A DNA stretch of 39,568 nt. Origin: a candidate division WWE3 bacterium (GTDB lineage Bacteria > Patescibacteriota > WWE3 > UBA101185 > UBA10185). The notes beneath the pieces are model-generated. The model had not been told where the DNA came from, did not search any database, and worked only from the letters and a program-made list of their open reading frames with translations. The stretch lies in NCBI GenBank assembly GCA_052035175.1, contig JBPOHV010000001.1, forward strand, positions 1 to 39,568, given 5' to 3'. This document shows, one piece after another, positions 6,551 to 12,398 of this stretch; positions within the stretch are counted from its first letter, which is position 1, and the number at the start of each line of letters is the position of its first letter. The position numbers and the translations under genes were made by a program.

Positions 6551-7648
6551 ATGCGATATGTACTGCCCGTTACAAAAAGTGCTATAAGCAATACCAAGGT
6601 AGTGTTAACACCTCAAGATGCAGCTCATTATAAATCTACGCCTGATTTATCAAAGTTATACGCATTAAAACACAAGCTAAACCCACAAAAGTATGTCTTA
6701 GTTGTTGGTATTGGAGGCTCTAGTCTGGGGTCAAAAGCAATTTACAATAGCATATTTGGCTATTACGACAACATAGAAACTAATAGATTTCCAAAAATTA
6801 TTTTTATTGAAACCGAGAGCGATGTTTTTAATGAAAAACTTATTACTTTACTCAATTCGATAGATCCAAATGATTTAGTTATAAATATCATAAGTAAATC
6901 TGGTACAACAGCAGAAACAACTTTCAATTTTGAATTGATACTAAAAAACTTTCCTAATTTTAAAAACCGTATCGTTATAACCACACAAGAGCAATCACCT
7001 CTCTCAAATCTCGCACACGAGCTAAATATAGACTTACTAGAAATCCCAAAAGAACTCAGTGGGAGATTCTCTGTTTTCTCATATGTAGGACTGTTTCCAC
7101 TAATACTTGCAAATATTGATATTTCAAAATTACTAGAAGGAAGCGACCTGGCATTACAAGATCTACAAACGCCATTGGATGCAGCATTATCCAAACATCA
7201 AGCCTACGAAACAAACTGCTTTATAAATAATTTATTTATTTTTTCTCCGGCATTAGAAACTTTAGGAGATTGGCATTCACAACTAGTAGCAGAGTCTACA
7301 GGTAAAGATAACAAGGGAATACTTCCTACAACATCAATCGGCTCTAATGATTTGCATTCTATAGCACAGTTTTATCTTGGAGGAAATAGCGCAAACATTT
7401 TTTTTACATTTATGAGTATAAAAACTGAAATTCACTTAAACAAACTGCTAAATGCAACAAAAGAAGCTTTTACTAATAAAGGAATCGCGTATGATGAAAT
7501 AATCTTAGAAACGGTAAATGAAATAGAGCTAGGGTACTTTATGCAATTCAAAATGCTCGAAACAATTTTTCTTGCTAAACTAATTGGTGTAAATCCTTTT
7601 AATCAGCCAAATGTTGAAGACTACAAAAAATACATTAGTCGCACCTAA
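6551..7648 (+). CDS. pgi: Glucose-6-phosphate isomerase (short form)
   Basis: VGIGGSSLG, SKSGTTAET, GRFSVFS, QLVAESTGK, NPFNQPNVEDYK. Start set at ATG 6551 because the longer ORF overlaps the mutS start. Confidence 0.93.
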   Translation: MRYVLPVTKSAISNTKVVLTPQDAAHYKSTPDLSKLYALKHKLNPQKYVLVVGIGGSSLGSKAIYNSIFGYYDNIETNRFPKIIFIETESDVFNEKLITLLNSIDPNDLVINIISKSGTTAETTFNFELILKNFPNFKNRIVITTQEQSPLSNLAHELNIDLLEIPKELSGRFSVFSYVGLFPLILANIDISKLLEGSDLALQDLQTPLDAALSKHQAYETNCFINNLFIFSPALETLGDWHSQLVAESTGKDNKGILPTTSIGSNDLHSIAQFYLGGNSANIFFTFMSIKTEIHLNKLLNATKEAFTNKGIAYDEIILETVNEIELGYFMQFKMLETIFLAKLIGVNPFNQPNVEDYKKYISRT

Positions 7649-9230
7649 ATATTTATCAAAACAAAATGTAATCCTTTGCATAGTTTCATGTTTATTAATC
7701 TGCTTAGGACTATTGGCTAGATTGCACAATATAGAATTTGGACTTAGCGCGCCAAGCTACTATGCCGATGAGCCAGAATTTACAGAGTTTGCTATCAATT
7801 ACGCATTCAACCTCAAAAGTATTATAAACAATGGTGATACCTATAAACTAATACCTGTATCTTTTGTTTATGGCACTGCGCCTACTTACATCCTCACTGT
7901 GGTAACAATTGTGTTGAGTAAAGTAAACAGCTTAGTAGGTAATCAAATAGATAGAACATATATATATATTGGTTTACGTATCTTTACAACCCTGCTTTCA
8001 TTAGGAATTGCTATATTAACAGGAATAATTGCTTACAAACTCACACCGCTCCAAAAATCACATCAGGGTAACACTCAAAACAAATATATTGGGCTCATTG
8101 CGTTGTCATTAGGAGTGTTTAACTGGAAACTAATCGTGATGGGGCATTATGTAAATGCTGATATTTTTTTAACTTTATTTCTGTGGTTATCGTTTTTGTT
8201 TATGTGGATGTATACGCAAAAACAAAAAAACTCTTTTGTTTTGATAGCTGGTGTTTTTTTTGGATTAGCCTTTGGTACAAAAGTGACTGCGCTGATCTCA
8301 ATCCCTGCATATATTTATATTTTTTTAAAAAACCGTAAAGTATACGACTTGTATGCTTTCGTGCTTTCGGCTCTTGGGTCATTTATGGTTACGAATCCTT
8401 TTTCTATTATTTTCAACGACAAGTTTGTACTGCGCGTACTAGACATGGTCACAAAAGAAGGCGGATTAGTATTTGATTCTGTAGACACCAATCCAGTCAA
8501 ATATCTTGTAGCACTTTCCACACTCGTCACATTACCCATATTATTACTTGCAATACCAAGTGCATTGACGTGCATTTCACAAAAAAAAGATAAGACATTT
8601 CATATTTTTCTTCTTAGTAATCTATTGATATATGTAGTGTTCTTTTCAATACAAGCACGAATAGCAGATAGATGGCTTTTACCAATAATACCGATCATCA
8701 TGATATATGCCAGCTACACTATTTATTATCTAATTCAAAAAGGTCTTTTATTTAAACTGGCACTTATACTTTTATTAAGCTTATACGCTTGCTACACACT
8801 AAGCGCTACATATCAATTTACAAAAGAAACTCCGCGTAGCGCAGCATATCAGTGGATCAAACAAAACCTTCCGCCCTCTACAGTCAAACTATATTACACA
8901 GAAGAAGGACTCGACCCGCTAACCAAAATACCTAGCATGAAAGTAACCCGTATGGGAGTTTATGAGTCAGAAGGAGGTCAATTAATATTGCCCGATAATC
9001 CGTATTTATATGACTATATAATAATTGCCGATAAACCTATGACCTACTTTAAAAAAAATGAAGTAAAAGTTAAGTACCCATATTACGTACAAAGGTGGCA
9101 ATCGTTTGAAAATAGCGTACAAGACAGTGGTGATTTTGTACTAGTTAAAGCATTCACAACAAGTAAAGCCAATCTAATACCACTTACAAATATGTATGTT
9201 TATCAAAGAGTGAATCTAGTTTGCAAATAA
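7611..9230 (+). CDS. GT-C fold membrane glycosyltransferase (ArnT/PMT, GT39/GT83-like)
   Basis: About a dozen hydrophobic segments, DEP motif in the first loop, NADIF and FGLAFGTK segments, soluble C-terminal domain. Confidence 0.75.
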   Translation: MLKTTKNTLVAPKYLSKQNVILCIVSCLLICLGLLARLHNIEFGLSAPSYYADEPEFTEFAINYAFNLKSIINNGDTYKLIPVSFVYGTAPTYILTVVTIVLSKVNSLVGNQIDRTYIYIGLRIFTTLLSLGIAILTGIIAYKLTPLQKSHQGNTQNKYIGLIALSLGVFNWKLIVMGHYVNADIFLTLFLWLSFLFMWMYTQKQKNSFVLIAGVFFGLAFGTKVTALISIPAYIYIFLKNRKVYDLYAFVLSALGSFMVTNPFSIIFNDKFVLRVLDMVTKEGGLVFDSVDTNPVKYLVALSTLVTLPILLLAIPSALTCISQKKDKTFHIFLLSNLLIYVVFFSIQARIADRWLLPIIPIIMIYASYTIYYLIQKGLLFKLALILLLSLYACYTLSATYQFTKETPRSAAYQWIKQNLPPSTVKLYYTEEGLDPLTKIPSMKVTRMGVYESEGGQLILPDNPYLYDYIIIADKPMTYFKKNEVKVKYPYYVQRWQSFENSVQDSGDFVLVKAFTTSKANLIPLTNMYVYQRVNLVCK

Positions 9231-9271
9231 AATGAGTGTTGTCTTCATAAGAAGACATTACATTACCCCTT

Positions 9272-9304
9272 AAAAAGAGAAAAGGCCCCTTGCGGGACCT
9301 TTTC
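9272..9304 (-). terminator. Intrinsic terminator downstream of rpoD and of the candidate sRNA
   Basis: 11-bp stem GAAAAGGUCCC/GGGGCCUUUUC, GCAA loop, followed by UCUUUUU. Confidence 0.85.
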
Positions 9305-9340
9305 AGGTGCTCCCCCCAATCCTTGCGGATTGGTGAAAGC
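9272..9340 (-). ncRNA. Candidate ~69-nt small RNA with two GCAA-tetraloop hairpins
   Basis: TTGACA-N17-TAATAT promoter puts +1 at G9340, the first base of hairpin GCUUUC-A-CCAAUCC-GCAA-GGAUUGG-G-GGGAGC; ends in an intrinsic terminator; no ORF. Confidence 0.55.
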
Positions 9341-9346
9341 TCAGAT

Positions 9347-9375
9347 ATATTACCGTGTAATATTCAAACTGTCAA
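9347..9375 (-). promoter_or_regulatory. Sigma70-type promoter just after the rpoD stop
   Basis: TTGACA (9375-9370), 17-nt spacer, TAATAT (9352-9347). Confidence 0.7.
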
Positions 9376-9398
9376 CACTTTTATAAAGATGCTTATTA

Positions 9399-10544
9399 CT
9401 AGAGATAATCTCTCAATCTTTTGCTTCTAGAAGGGTGTCTCAATTTACGTAATGCCTTAGCTTCGATCTGACGTATGCGTTCTCTTGTGACACCAAATTC
9501 TTTACCAACCTCTTCCAAAGTACGAGTCCTTCCATCTTTCAAACCAAATCTCAATTCCAAGACTTTGCGTTCTCGAGGATTCAGTGTATCTAATACTTCA
9601 TCAATATGTTCGCGCAACAGCTCTATACTTGCTGATTCAAATGGGGACAAAGTGGTTTCATCAGGTATAAATTCTTTTAATCTAGTATCTTCTTCTTTAC
9701 CTATTGGTGTTTCTAAAGAGGCTGTATCTTGTGAAATCCTCACTATTTCGTAGGCTTTTTCATTTTCTATCCCCATAACTTTCGCAACTTCTTCTGGAGT
9801 AGGTGTTCTCTCTAACTCTTGTTCTAATTGTCTTTCAATCTTTTTATACTTATTTATGGTTTCAACCATATGAACAGGAATTCTTATAGTTTTAGCTTGG
9901 TCAGCAATAGCACGTGTAATCGCTTGGCGTATCCACCAAGTTGCATAAGTTGAAAATTTGAAACCACGTCGCCAATCAAATTTTTCTACAGCTTTCATCA
10001 ACCCGATATTTCCTTCTTGGATAAGGTCCAAAAACTGTAAGCCTCTACCCATATGTCTTTTTGCAATAGAAACAACTAAACGTAAATTGGCTTTTGCCAA
10101 TGCTTCTGCTGCCTTTTTATCGTCTTTTTCTACACGTTTAGCTAGATCAACTTCTTCTGCAGCGGTTAATAACTCGACTTTACCAATTTCTCTCAAATAC
10201 ATACGAACTGGGTCAGAAGATGTAGTTTTGTCTAATTTTACTGATGCTACATCTAGCTCTTGTAATTCTTTGAGCTTTTCCGCTTCTTTCTCTGAAGCAA
10301 CGTCAAATACGTCTACACCAGCTTCTACAAGTTTCTCGTAAAGAGAATCTAGTGTTTCTATGTCTTCTTCGGCTTGGGGGAAGATGCTCAATATGTCGTC
10401 GATAGTCAAATAACCTTGTTTTTTACCTCTAGTTATAATCTTTTTCAAAATAGACTCATCTAGTACAATATGACCGTTAACTAGGTCTTCTTTTTTTAAT
10501 ATATCCTTTTTAGTAGTTTTTTGTTCTTTTGGGGCTTTTGGCAT
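9399..10544 (-). CDS. rpoD: Primary RNA polymerase sigma factor
   Basis: [73 protein letters not shown]; ends TAG-TAA-TAA. Confidence 0.98.
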
Positions 10545-10634
10545 AATAATTTTTTTATTTATAAATATGCTAGAAATAGAAGTCTAAACACATTAGACTA
10601 TACAATTTTACCGGCATGATAGCAAATAACTCAA

Positions 10635-12398
10635 TTAAGTCAATTGCTTTGACAACTCTTGCATCTTGACTGTAAGTTTTGAAAGTTGCTCAACATCCTT
10701 TTGTGCCTCGGCAAGTTTAACAGATTTACCCAGAACTACAAGCTGTCGCTTGGTATATTCGAGTTTTAGCCTGCTACTAGTCTTCTTTAGCTCTGTAACA
10801 ACGGCCTGAGGATCGCTTACGTCAATATTAAAGTTCCATAGCATAAGCTCAGTTACTAGTTTGGTAAGATCGGCAGATAAAGTAGTCACCAAAGACTTTA
10901 AAGTAGTCGCTTCAGAGTTTTGCTTTAAATACAGCGCAATCTCATTATATATAGTTCTAAGGTCGATATTCACAAATACCTCTGATGGTACGTCATAAAC
11001 AAAATCTCTCGCTATAGAAATATCCGCTTGAAACAATAATGCAATAAATAGCTTTTCGGTGTTTGACATACCTGGCGATGGTTGTAAGGCCGCAGGCTCA
11101 ATAAGAGAACTTTTCTTTGCAACATTTGGTGATTGTAAGCGCTCAAGTACGATTGAAACCGAGACATCTAGAACTTGTGAAATAATTTGTGCATAGTGGT
11201 CTATCAAAACTTTACTCTTAATATTCACAAAATAAGAGCGCATAGCATCTAAAGCTGCATCTTTCCCGTAAGGGGAGGCGGTATCCATAGACTTCGCCAA
11301 GGTTGTTATTACATAGTCATAATACAATATGGTATTTCTGATTATAGTAAAAGCATTGTCTGGATCTTTTTGAACCAATTCATCTAGATCTTTATAACCA
11401 CTGGGTATAATAATGCACTTAATTGTAAAATCCATATCTTCTGCCAACGTAATAGCTTTACGTGCAGCTGTCATACCAGCACTATCAGAATCAAAACAAA
11501 ACGTGATGTCTTTTGTATATCGAGAAATAGCAGCTAAATGCTGCTCGGTCAAAGCAGTTCCTAGCGGAGCAACCACGTTATGTATACCTATTTTTACACA
11601 ACTTATGACATCCATCGGCCCTTCTACAACCAATGCACCCTCTTTACGCATATGCATTTTTGCCAAATGGAGACCGTATACAAAGTTGCTCTTTTTAAAT
11701 ATTTCTGTTTCTGCAGTGTTTAGATATTTTGGTTGTTGATCTGGCGTAAGCGCCCGGCCAATAAAACCGAGTACTTGGCTGTCTATTCCTATTAAAGGGA
11801 ACAGAACTCTGTGTCGAAACTTATCAATATAACCATTACCACTAGTTCTCTTTACGGTAACGCCAGCGCGAGACATATCAACATCACTATATTTACGCGA
11901 TCGCAAAGCTTTATATAAAAAGTCCCATTCTTCTGGAGCATAACCAAGTTGAAACTGTGAAATAAGCTCTTTGGTTAGTTTACGTGTGTTCAAAAAATAA
12001 TCTAAGCCGTCTTTTCCAGCACTATGCGTCAACAAAACTTTATTATAAATTTTTGCAGATAAATCATTTATTGCATAAAGCTTAGATTTCTCGTCATGAG
12101 ATTTATAATCTTGGGATTCTCCAGAAATATCGACGCCAGCTTTATCAGCCAATTTCTTTTTGGCTTCATGAAAAGTCAAACCTTCAATCTTTTGTATAAA
12201 TGCAAATATATCTCCGCTTTCATTACAACCAAAACACTTATATATTCCAATATCTGGTGAAACCATGAAAGATGATGTTTTTTCATTATGAAATGGGCAA
12301 AGGCCTTTGTAATTCTTTCCGCTTTTTTTCAAATCGACATAACTACCCACAATATCAACTATGCTAAGTTTGTGTTTTATTTGGGAGATTGTATCCAT
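10635..12398 (-). CDS. dnaG: DNA primase
   Basis: CHC2 finger CPFHNEKTSSF...CFGC, PKYLNT, TOPRIM VVEGPMDV and CFDSDSAG; upstream of rpoD. Confidence 0.97.
   Translation of the reverse strand: MDTISQIKHKLSIVDIVGSYVDLKKSGKNYKGLCPFHNEKTSSFMVSPDIGIYKCFGCNESGDIFAFIQKIEGLTFHEAKKKLADKAGVDISGESQDYKSHDEKSKLYAINDLSAKIYNKVLLTHSAGKDGLDYFLNTRKLTKELISQFQLGYAPEEWDFLYKALRSRKYSDVDMSRAGVTVKRTSGNGYIDKFRHRVLFPLIGIDSQVLGFIGRALTPDQQPKYLNTAETEIFKKSNFVYGLHLAKMHMRKEGALVVEGPMDVISCVKIGIHNVVAPLGTALTEQHLAAISRYTKDITFCFDSDSAGMTAARKAITLAEDMDFTIKCIIIPSGYKDLDELVQKDPDNAFTIIRNTILYYDYVITTLAKSMDTASPYGKDAALDAMRSYFVNIKSKVLIDHYAQIISQVLDVSVSIVLERLQSPNVAKKSSLIEPAALQPSPGMSNTEKLFIALLFQADISIARDFVYDVPSEVFVNIDLRTIYNEIALYLKQNSEATTLKSLVTTLSADLTKLVTELMLWNFNIDVSDPQAVVTELKKTSSRLKLEYTKRQLVVLGKSVKLAEAQKDVEQLSKLTVKMQELSKQLT

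Follow-up and report, generated by a model that had tools for sequence, protein, structure and literature searches.

A candidate small-RNA gene behind rpoD and its dispersed relatives in a family of Saccharibacteria

Small RNAs of type I, of which DapZ and MicL are examples, come from the 3' ends of mRNAs, where they have a promoter of their own and use the terminator of the parent mRNA. A comparable arrangement is found in the genome of a candidate division WWE3 bacterium, in a stretch of 39,568 nucleotides (nt) that was analysed as a whole and is called the window here: directly behind rpoD, the gene for the housekeeping sigma-70 factor, the minus strand carries a predicted sigma-70-type promoter followed by two hairpins, the second of which is an intrinsic terminator. 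This region is probably an independently transcribed small-RNA gene that shares the terminator of rpoD, and the product that we favour is an RNA that acts in trans and is recognized by its shape. The element is most likely one copy of an undescribed, lineage-restricted and dispersed cassette of about 120 bp that belongs to a family of ultra-small Saccharibacteria, and its place behind rpoD is incidental.

With the type I RNAs the cassette has in common its location in the 3' region of a coding unit, its own (predicted) promoter and a shared terminator. It departs from them in that its promoter lies after the stop codon and not inside the gene, in that it is multicopy and dispersed rather than co-inherited with rpoD (0 of 29 relatives), and in that neither an Hfq gene in the source genome nor an unpaired seed was found for it. 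A second point of comparison is offered by sibling small RNAs such as LhrC1-5, Qrr1-5 and the streptococcal csRNAs (the last with two stem-loops), which occur in several copies that keep an unpaired seed while their stems drift. The cassette likewise has several diverged copies per genome, each with a conserved promoter and terminator; unlike in the siblings, however, the stems covary, no unpaired seed is kept, and only a short linker and variable tetraloops are left unpaired.

Two further systems resemble the cassette in layout. The countertranscript FinP consists (PMC3105414) of two stem-loops (SLI and SLII) separated by a 4-nt spacer and followed by a 3' tail. The cassette RNA is similar to FinP and other countertranscripts in being short, with two stem-loops, a short spacer and a 3' tail; it differs in that the locus has no gene start on the opposite strand and no plasmid context, in that no gene with a ProQ/FinO domain was found in the source genome, and in that its loops are 4-nt tetraloops as opposed to kissing loops of 6-7 nt. 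The PeSL cassettes of T4-type phages (PMC2839356) are intergenic repeats that follow an upstream stop codon and comprise an AT-rich stretch, a sigma-70 promoter of consensus type and a stem-loop that is stable and contains G-T pairs. The place of the stem-loop is within the promoter, over it or immediately ahead of it; a ribosome-binding site and a gene close the cassette, and the copies differ in position between relatives. The cassette behind rpoD is also a repeated combination of sigma-70 promoter and stem-loop right after an upstream stop codon, yet both of its helices follow the +1, the second is a terminator, no gene is served, and the genome is cellular and not that of a phage.

The cassette behind rpoD

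The source genome measures 0.96 Mb, has 36% G+C and is 98% complete; the window is the first 39.6 kb of its 925-kb contig (G000:C14). The features of the locus are listed below, those of the cassette first.

9370 to 9375, minus strand: -35 hexamer TTGACA (promoter scan)
9347 to 9352, minus strand: -10 hexamer TAATAT, after a 17-nt spacer (promoter scan)
9341 to 9346, minus strand: 6-nt gap between the -10 hexamer and the +1
9340, minus strand: predicted +1, a G, seventh nt past the -10 hexamer and first base of hairpin 1 (placed by the spacing of leaderless starts in this genome and by the like geometry of the paralogues)
9309 to 9340, minus strand: hairpin 1, with 14 positions per arm of which 13 are paired (two as U.G), one A.G mismatch and a GCAA loop (fold)
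9305 to 9308, minus strand: 4-nt linker ACCU (sequence and fold)
9279 to 9304, minus strand: hairpin 2, intrinsic terminator stem-loop of 11 bp (6 G-C) with a GCAA loop (terminator scan and fold)
9270 to 9278, minus strand: U-rich terminator tail, where small RNA and rpoD mRNA alike are predicted to end
9270 to 9340, minus strand: whole predicted small RNA, about 69-71 nt (94.1 and 67.5 bits with the covariance models R1 and R2 described below)
9376 to 9398, minus strand: A-rich stretch of 23 nt from the rpoD stop to the -35 hexamer, with AAAGTG at its 3' end
9399 to 10544, minus strand: rpoD, housekeeping sigma-70, 381 aa (open reading frame; Pfam Sigma70_r1_1, r1_2, r2, r3 and r4)
10635 to 12398, minus strand: dnaG, the primase gene upstream of rpoD
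7611 to 9230, plus strand: convergent neighbour, a PMT-type glycosyltransferase-like membrane protein (open reading frame and Pfam), ending 39 nt past the terminator

The promoter agrees with the sigma-70 consensus at 10 of 12 positions, its spacer falls within 16-18 nt, and it starts 23 nt after the rpoD stop codon, much where the initial annotation of this stretch had placed it. That annotation had also read G9340 as the first base of a 13-bp hairpin capped by GCAA, followed by a second GCAA-capped stem of 11 bp and a U-tract; the first hairpin is seen in the sequence and in the minimum free energy (MFE) and centroid folds, and the second was recovered both by the terminator scan and by folding. 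The two-hairpin structure is the MFE and the centroid fold at once, with an energy of -38.8 kcal/mol (z = -6.6; 0 of 200 shuffles as good) and an MFE frequency of 0.80. An alternative ACCU-GAAA-AGGU hairpin had been pointed out as well; its letters are present in the sequence, but it appears in neither the MFE nor the centroid fold, and its pairing is not conserved in the paralogue or in other members of the family. Hairpin 1 is followed by ACCUGAAAAG, with no U-run, so that the two hairpins do not make a tandem ('double') terminator, and the only terminator for rpoD within its 3' region is the one at 9279-9304.

The statements that the region holds no open reading frame (ORF) and no RNA of a recognizable kind were borne out. 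No ORF of at least 40 aa was found on the minus strand within 9270-9340, and a covariance search of 9270-9375 with Rfam 15 at gathering thresholds matched no family, transfer RNA (tRNA), signal recognition particle (SRP) RNA and 6S RNA included; ARAGORN and Rfam locate tRNAs and the transfer-messenger RNA (tmRNA) elsewhere in the window and none at the cassette. In a permissive Rfam scan the top match was ctRNA_p42d, which reached 18.5 bits against a threshold of 50 and covered the terminator portion only. Matches to the plasmid RNA RNAI (RF00106) at four loci of the family scored 24-35 bits against a gathering score of 47; these sub-threshold matches seem to rest on terminator likeness, as judged against the pUC-origin sequence. 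Since it stays below the Rfam threshold, the cassette is not a member of the RNAI family.

Sigma-70-type motifs appear, from their distribution, to be used as promoters in this organism. On the large contig, where 968 ORFs were called crudely as the longest non-overlapping frames, the density of sites with at least 10 of 12 consensus positions reaches 1.66 per kb in intergenic DNA versus 0.36 per kb in coding DNA (4.6-fold), and 89 of 102 such intergenic sites are directed at a co-directional ORF. The pattern TTGACA-N16-18-TANNNT is found 28 times in 61.6 kb of intergenic DNA versus 24 times in 864 kb of coding DNA (about 16-fold). Leaderless mRNAs, moreover, look widespread, judging by the spacing of -10 motifs: in 173 of the 968 ORFs exactly 6 nt separate the end of a TANNNT from the start codon, whereas other distances give a background of about 35. 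The sites so spaced are preceded by a TGn signal of the extended -10 type and by no more than a weak -35. This spacing puts the transcription start at the seventh nt after the -10 hexamer, which at the present locus is G9340.

On this anatomy, a strong sigma-70-type promoter would start transcription at G9340, and the RNA would fold at once into a hairpin from its very first base and run into the intrinsic terminator 4 nt later. The product of about 70 nt would be nearly all double-stranded, with a helix at both ends, and is expected to be very stable. The rpoD mRNA, for its part, would read through the cassette and end at the common terminator.

Two side observations concern the surroundings of the cassette. 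Between its terminator and the stop codon of the glycosyltransferase gene, at 9239-9262, lies an extra 7-bp hairpin with no U-tract. In the gap between dnaG and rpoD, the minus strand carries a promoter-like TTGACT-N16-TATCAT (10616-10643) at 72 nt 5' of rpoD, which may thus have a promoter of its own besides operon read-through.

Related cassettes and the covariation of their helices

To find further copies in the source genome, 3,392 promoter-like sites (at least 9 of 12 consensus positions) were screened for a helix of at least 8 pairs that begins no more than 2 nt from the predicted +1 and for a terminator no farther than 130 nt away. Of the 14 sites that passed, 11 are coding, with weak promoters and mostly one poor hairpin. 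The three intergenic ones all have a perfect TTGACA, a spacer of exactly 17 nt and two tetraloop-capped helices, the second being a terminator; they are the window locus and two sites on G000:C14, at 562002-562105 (plus strand) and 523410-523512 (minus strand). All three cassettes start 12-29 nt after a co-directional stop codon, which belongs to rpoD in the window, to a PIG-L deacetylase gene (by Pfam) at 562 kb (12 nt) and to the gene for a 457-aa protein at 523 kb (29 nt), the last appearing RelA/SpoT-like from a reading of its motifs.

The 562-kb copy is clearly paralogous to the window cassette. Common to both are the AAAGTG, the 17-nt spacer, ATCTGA before the +1 G and a like terminator, and the 13-bp hairpin that begins at the +1 has two U.G pairs at the same stem positions, while 6 of 12 aligned pairs of hairpin 1 have changed on both sides. 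The 523-kb copy, in which TTGACA-N17-TATATT is followed by a +1 G at the foot of a 10-bp hairpin and then by the terminator, both with CUUG loops, has a different sequence; it is missed by both covariance models and is a look-alike, akin by layout only.

The relation between RNA and promoter was then followed across genomes with a covariance model (R1) built from the RNA part only (+1 to tail, 25 pairs) of the window copy and the 562-kb paralogue, the promoter being outside the model. In the 85 other genomes of the same GTDB family, R1 gave full-length matches of 30-55 bits in many genera. A promoter pattern, TTGACA-N16-18-TANNN[T/A] ending 4-8 nt 5' of the match, accompanies 16 of 28 non-self matches, compared with about 0.02 expected from the background rate at these loci (27 patterns over 163,594 strand positions) and a 5-nt window. 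By length, the pattern is present at this distance in 16 of the 20 matches of at least 60 nt, whereas all 8 shorter matches, in appearance bare terminators, lack it there; in a further three matches it lies 16-23 nt upstream. A model retrained on 19 sequences (R2) found matches outside its training set, and the pattern is present in 4 of 4 uncut ones of at least 49 bits; the other new matches comprise two cut by contig ends and two of about 35 bits without the pattern. When 20 copies are aligned with MAFFT, no variation is seen in the -35 hexamer or in the T and A of -10 positions 1 and 2, although the rows were picked as full-length matches, nearly all with a promoter, and the unbiased figure is the 16 of 28. 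The A-rich stretch before the -35 hexamer recurs too, with AAAGTG in the 562-kb paralogue and similar A-rich stretches in other genera, and it may act as an UP-like element.

The promoter is thus kept beside RNA homologues at other loci, which lends support to the initial annotation's suggestion that the region is a discrete small-RNA gene running from promoter to terminator, as far as comparison of sequences can indicate this. The same annotation had made conservation of the promoter in relatives a touchstone; it is conserved beside the RNA homologues elsewhere (the 16 of 28 matches) but not behind the rpoD genes of 29 relatives, which are taken up below.

Both helices covary across the family. 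A model-fitted alignment of 19 members was examined; these are full-length matches chosen by hand out of 32 (with 11 short or low-scoring loci, one 5'-truncated second copy and one opposite-strand match left out), so that the counts lean to structure. In it, 93.3% of cells form a standard pair and 21 of 25 pairs have changed on both sides (113 cells), values reached by 0 of 500 shuffles; slid controls gave at most 56.5% paired cells and at most 24 double-change cells. Helix 1 shows both-side changes in 14 of its 14 pairs, and helix 2 has 99% of its cells paired. G.U cells number 29 versus 12 A.C cells, and the promoter-side strand folds better than its complement in 19 of 19 members (-38.8 versus -26.3 kcal/mol for the window copy). 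This strand asymmetry in G.U cells and fold energies points to selection on RNA rather than on a DNA palindrome, and the covariation of helix 1, which termination does not require, argues the same way.

Within this common fold there is variation of detail. At positions 6-8, helix 1 opens into a small internal loop in one subtype but is paired in others; the linker measures 3-5 nt and reads R-C-Y-N in the majority of the 19 members, while two have a linker of 1 nt; and the loops are interchangeable stable tetraloops (GCAA, CUUG and UUCG). A sequence related to the window copy came from a run of another wastewater study, in which a 428-nt contig spans 9271-9594 with 46 substitutions and 4 indels. 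All 4 indels fall at 9378-9395, between the rpoD stop and the -35 hexamer, and none in the promoter spacer or the RNA.

The copies are dispersed. Genomes have 0 to 4 of them (carriers 1 to 4), and most pairs of loci are alike over only about 100-120 bp, that is, over promoter and RNA, with unrelated flanks. In the rest of the class, R2 found a match in 1 of 48 genomes, a weak one of 51 nt. Where upstream matches were inspected, the copies of genomes G075 and G009 have flanking sequence upstream of the cassette in common, and their hairpins differ by paired changes. Genome G072 (G072:C100, positions 1-2380) has the gene for a transporter of the major facilitator superfamily (MFS) between two copies, the first of them cut by the contig end, and the single copy of the congeneric G025 corresponds to that first copy. 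Among the 20 aligned copies, 9 follow directly on a co-directional ORF, the stop codon of which lies 37-64 nt from the +1; downstream, 9 have a co-directional ORF within about 20-120 nt and 7 a convergent ORF within about 130 nt. The neighbouring genes are heterogeneous, and no common theme was found among them.

Proposed function and competing explanations

Taking the gene to be real, we tentatively propose, as something rather short of probable, that its RNA acts in trans and is recognized as a structure, being the decoy or the partner of an RNA-binding protein or nuclease. Recognition of shape is favoured because shape and a strong promoter are what is conserved, no unpaired sequence is, and neither Hfq nor ProQ is at hand. 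The family alignments contain no conserved unpaired stretch beyond the linker of 3-5 nt, and a search of the genome for sites complementary to 13-mers over hairpin 1 and the linker, with at most one mismatch, returned only chance-level scatter; no Hfq gene and no gene with a ProQ/FinO domain (PF04352) was found in the source genome. The absence of a seed, a target, Hfq and ProQ speaks against a regulator that works by seed pairing. As for a protein partner, a search by co-occurrence led to RRM_1 proteins, which are present in 75 of 86 genomes and so give no discrimination.

A number of points weigh against the reading of the region as a trans-acting small-RNA gene. The proposal for its function is made up of absences, with no positive result among them. 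On the evidence of the source genome alone, the argument from the promoter is weak: a local promoter scan found 3 sites in 1.4 kb against 4.0 expected, which, unlike the genome-wide and comparative counts given earlier, is not above chance, and convergent gaps without a called tRNA gene hold 3 sites of at least 10 of 12 positions in 7.9 kb, which is the coding rate (two further sites in convergent gaps precede tRNA genes masked by the ORF caller); the crude calling of ORFs, mentioned above, belongs here too. In the family comparison, the E-values of R1 and R2 are rough, hairpin 1 of the window copy is the family's sequence outlier, and the covariation counts carry the lean that comes with choosing members by hand. 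With R2 at an E-value of at most 0.001, the cassette is present in 23 of the 85 other family genomes (about a quarter) in a patchy manner, and its copies are mostly at non-syntenic sites, even between two species of one genus (G075 and G076). Patchiness and non-syntenic sites would also fit a spreading element that has no function in trans.

The region behind rpoD in relatives adds to these points. The collection searched has no second genome of the window's genus, and scans of metagenomes and genomes with RpoD returned nothing above 82% identity. The 330 nt 3' of rpoD were taken from 29 relatives with RpoD identities of 62-82% (28 complete, one ending at 48 nt at a contig end), and a promoter with double hairpin is present in 0 of the 29; some have one plain terminator, as at five loci for example, and most run into the next gene. 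A blastn search with the spacer found the coding end of rpoD (61 genomes) or chance matches of 18-26 nt (86 genomes), and no homologue in the 85 other family genomes. The tie to rpoD that the initial annotation implied finds no support in these comparisons, since other copies adjoin unrelated genes and the 29 relatives are without the element at this place.

The rival that fares best, although we consider it unlikely, is that the cassette is a spreading or duplicating module of promoter and terminator, any selected effect of which is local (ending of the upstream transcript, insulation of neighbours, sites for recombination or donated promoter activity), the short RNA being a by-product with no role in trans. 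Much of the dispersal described above would be expected from such a module: the similarity over about 100-120 bp with unrelated flanks in most pairs of loci, the different loci in G075 and G076, the MFS gene of G072 flanked by two copies, the patchy occurrence of 0 to 4 copies, and the 9 of 20 cassettes right behind a co-directional stop among heterogeneous neighbours. There is also a known analogue in the PeSL cassettes of T4-type phages, in which a strong sigma-70 promoter is joined to a terminating stem-loop and which recombine among themselves (PMC2839356). What this evidence documents, however, is the dispersal of a unit of about 120 bp and not mobility as such. Hairpin 1 would be superfluous to a terminator, yet 14 of its 14 pairs covary, and both the G.U pairs and the fold energies favour the transcribed strand, the latter in 19 of 19 copies. 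Moreover, copies within the same genome are old and diverged and each keeps its hairpin, and in G075 and G009, with their common upstream flank, the hairpins differ by paired changes.

A bolder and quite doubtful form of the small-RNA reading would see the cassette as a new kind of dispersing, complete transcription unit of the bacteria of the candidate phyla radiation (CPR), specifying a tRNA-sized and nearly all double-stranded RNA with a flush helix end at its 5'-triphosphate that is recognized purely by shape. An RNA made in this way from one of the genome's best promoters might be a decoy for a nuclease or RNA-binding protein. It might also be a sink that tunes free RNA polymerase, an idea that arises because two of the three copies sit right behind rpoD and the RelA/SpoT-like gene, or it might pass from the epibiont to the host cell. 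A search of the literature turned up no publication that deals with small RNAs or with the use of promoters in Saccharibacteria or other members of the CPR (Patescibacteria).

That the RNA is instead a cis-antisense RNA, pairing over its full length with the 3' end of the convergent glycosyltransferase mRNA whenever the latter runs through a weak stop signal, and controlling that mRNA's stability, seems very improbable. The geometry of the locus would permit it: the convergent gene ends 39 nt beyond the terminator, read-through is plausible in that hairpin 2 is followed by only 4 U on the plus strand, and a two-hairpin layout resembles that of plasmid antisense RNAs. In addition, a convergent ORF lies within about 130 nt in 7 of the 20 copies, and the copy in genome G029 also adjoins a PMT-family gene, though one that is upstream and co-directional. 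A convergent partner is nevertheless not a trait of the family, for nine copies, the clear paralogue among them, are followed by a co-directional gene at a distance of at most about 120 nt; the tetraloops GCAA, CUUG and UUCG would make poor kissing loops, and the transcript of the opposite strand is only presumed.

Hardly more credit can be given to the idea that the element is merely the 3' untranslated region (UTR) of rpoD, with a stabilizing hairpin and a terminator (a 'double terminator') and a promoter that matches by chance. In its favour, rpoD transcripts would meet no terminator ahead of 9279 apart from this one, convergent gaps are no richer in promoter-like sites than the background, and some relatives do have a plain terminator behind rpoD. 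This idea is at odds, though, with the promoter found at the same distance from 16 of 28 RNA homologue matches in other genera against about 0.02 expected, with the same promoter-hexamer flanks in the paralogue, and with a hairpin 1 that has no U-tract and is not a terminator. Least credible of all is a leader or attenuator in which hairpin 1 and some factor would decide whether the terminator forms and thereby control a downstream gene: there is a co-directional ORF within about 20-120 nt downstream in 9 of 20 copies, but the window copy is opposed by a convergent gene, its terminator forms a helix that is both perfect and stable, the family shows no conserved alternative pairing, and the gene downstream of the 562-kb paralogue appears, from a reading of the gap, to have its own promoter-like site and ribosome-binding site there.

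Saccharibacteria and other CPR bacteria are hard to grow, and the favoured reading of the region as a small-RNA gene offers several handles for testing: the 5' end is predicted to the base, the 3' end is predicted as well, the length should come to about 70 nt, more than 20 homologues share the covarying helices, and the promoter should work with ordinary sigma-70 polymerase. Should the RNA act by its shape, it would represent a kind of abundant small RNA that differs from the regulators of model bacteria, which work by seed pairing; should the cassette instead be a spreading module of promoter and terminator, it would correspond, in cells, to the PeSL cassettes of phages.

Rejected identities and other promoter-borne units

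Two further identities were considered for the cassette hairpin. Two members of the family have ACCA after hairpin 1, as a tRNA-like minihelix would, yet the linker of the family conforms only to R-C-Y-N, and this identity was rejected. The SRP RNA models RF00169 and RF01854 have no match anywhere in the 98%-complete source genome, the SRP RNA of which is either very divergent or absent from the assembly. The cassette hairpin was rejected as a candidate for it, being multicopy and variable in sequence and, in the window copy, without internal loops. Internal loops are a feature of SRP RNA.

The survey of promoters brought to light other places where a promoter precedes something other than a called ORF. 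Among 16 intergenic sites without a co-directional ORF, 5 lie in front of genes for tRNAs or the 23S rRNA, and 1 serves a small ORF missed by the caller; RNA genes in these genomes are well signposted by consensus promoters that lack a following ORF. Four more ORF-less units that run from a promoter to a terminator lie on G000:C14, at 96880-97021, 280025-280150 and 844450-844574 (all minus strand) and at 103892-104002 (plus strand), with predicted RNAs of about 65-105 nt. Three of the four were scanned against Rfam and gave no match at an E-value of at most 0.1. The unit at 104 kb scores 35.5 bits with R2, by way of its terminator.

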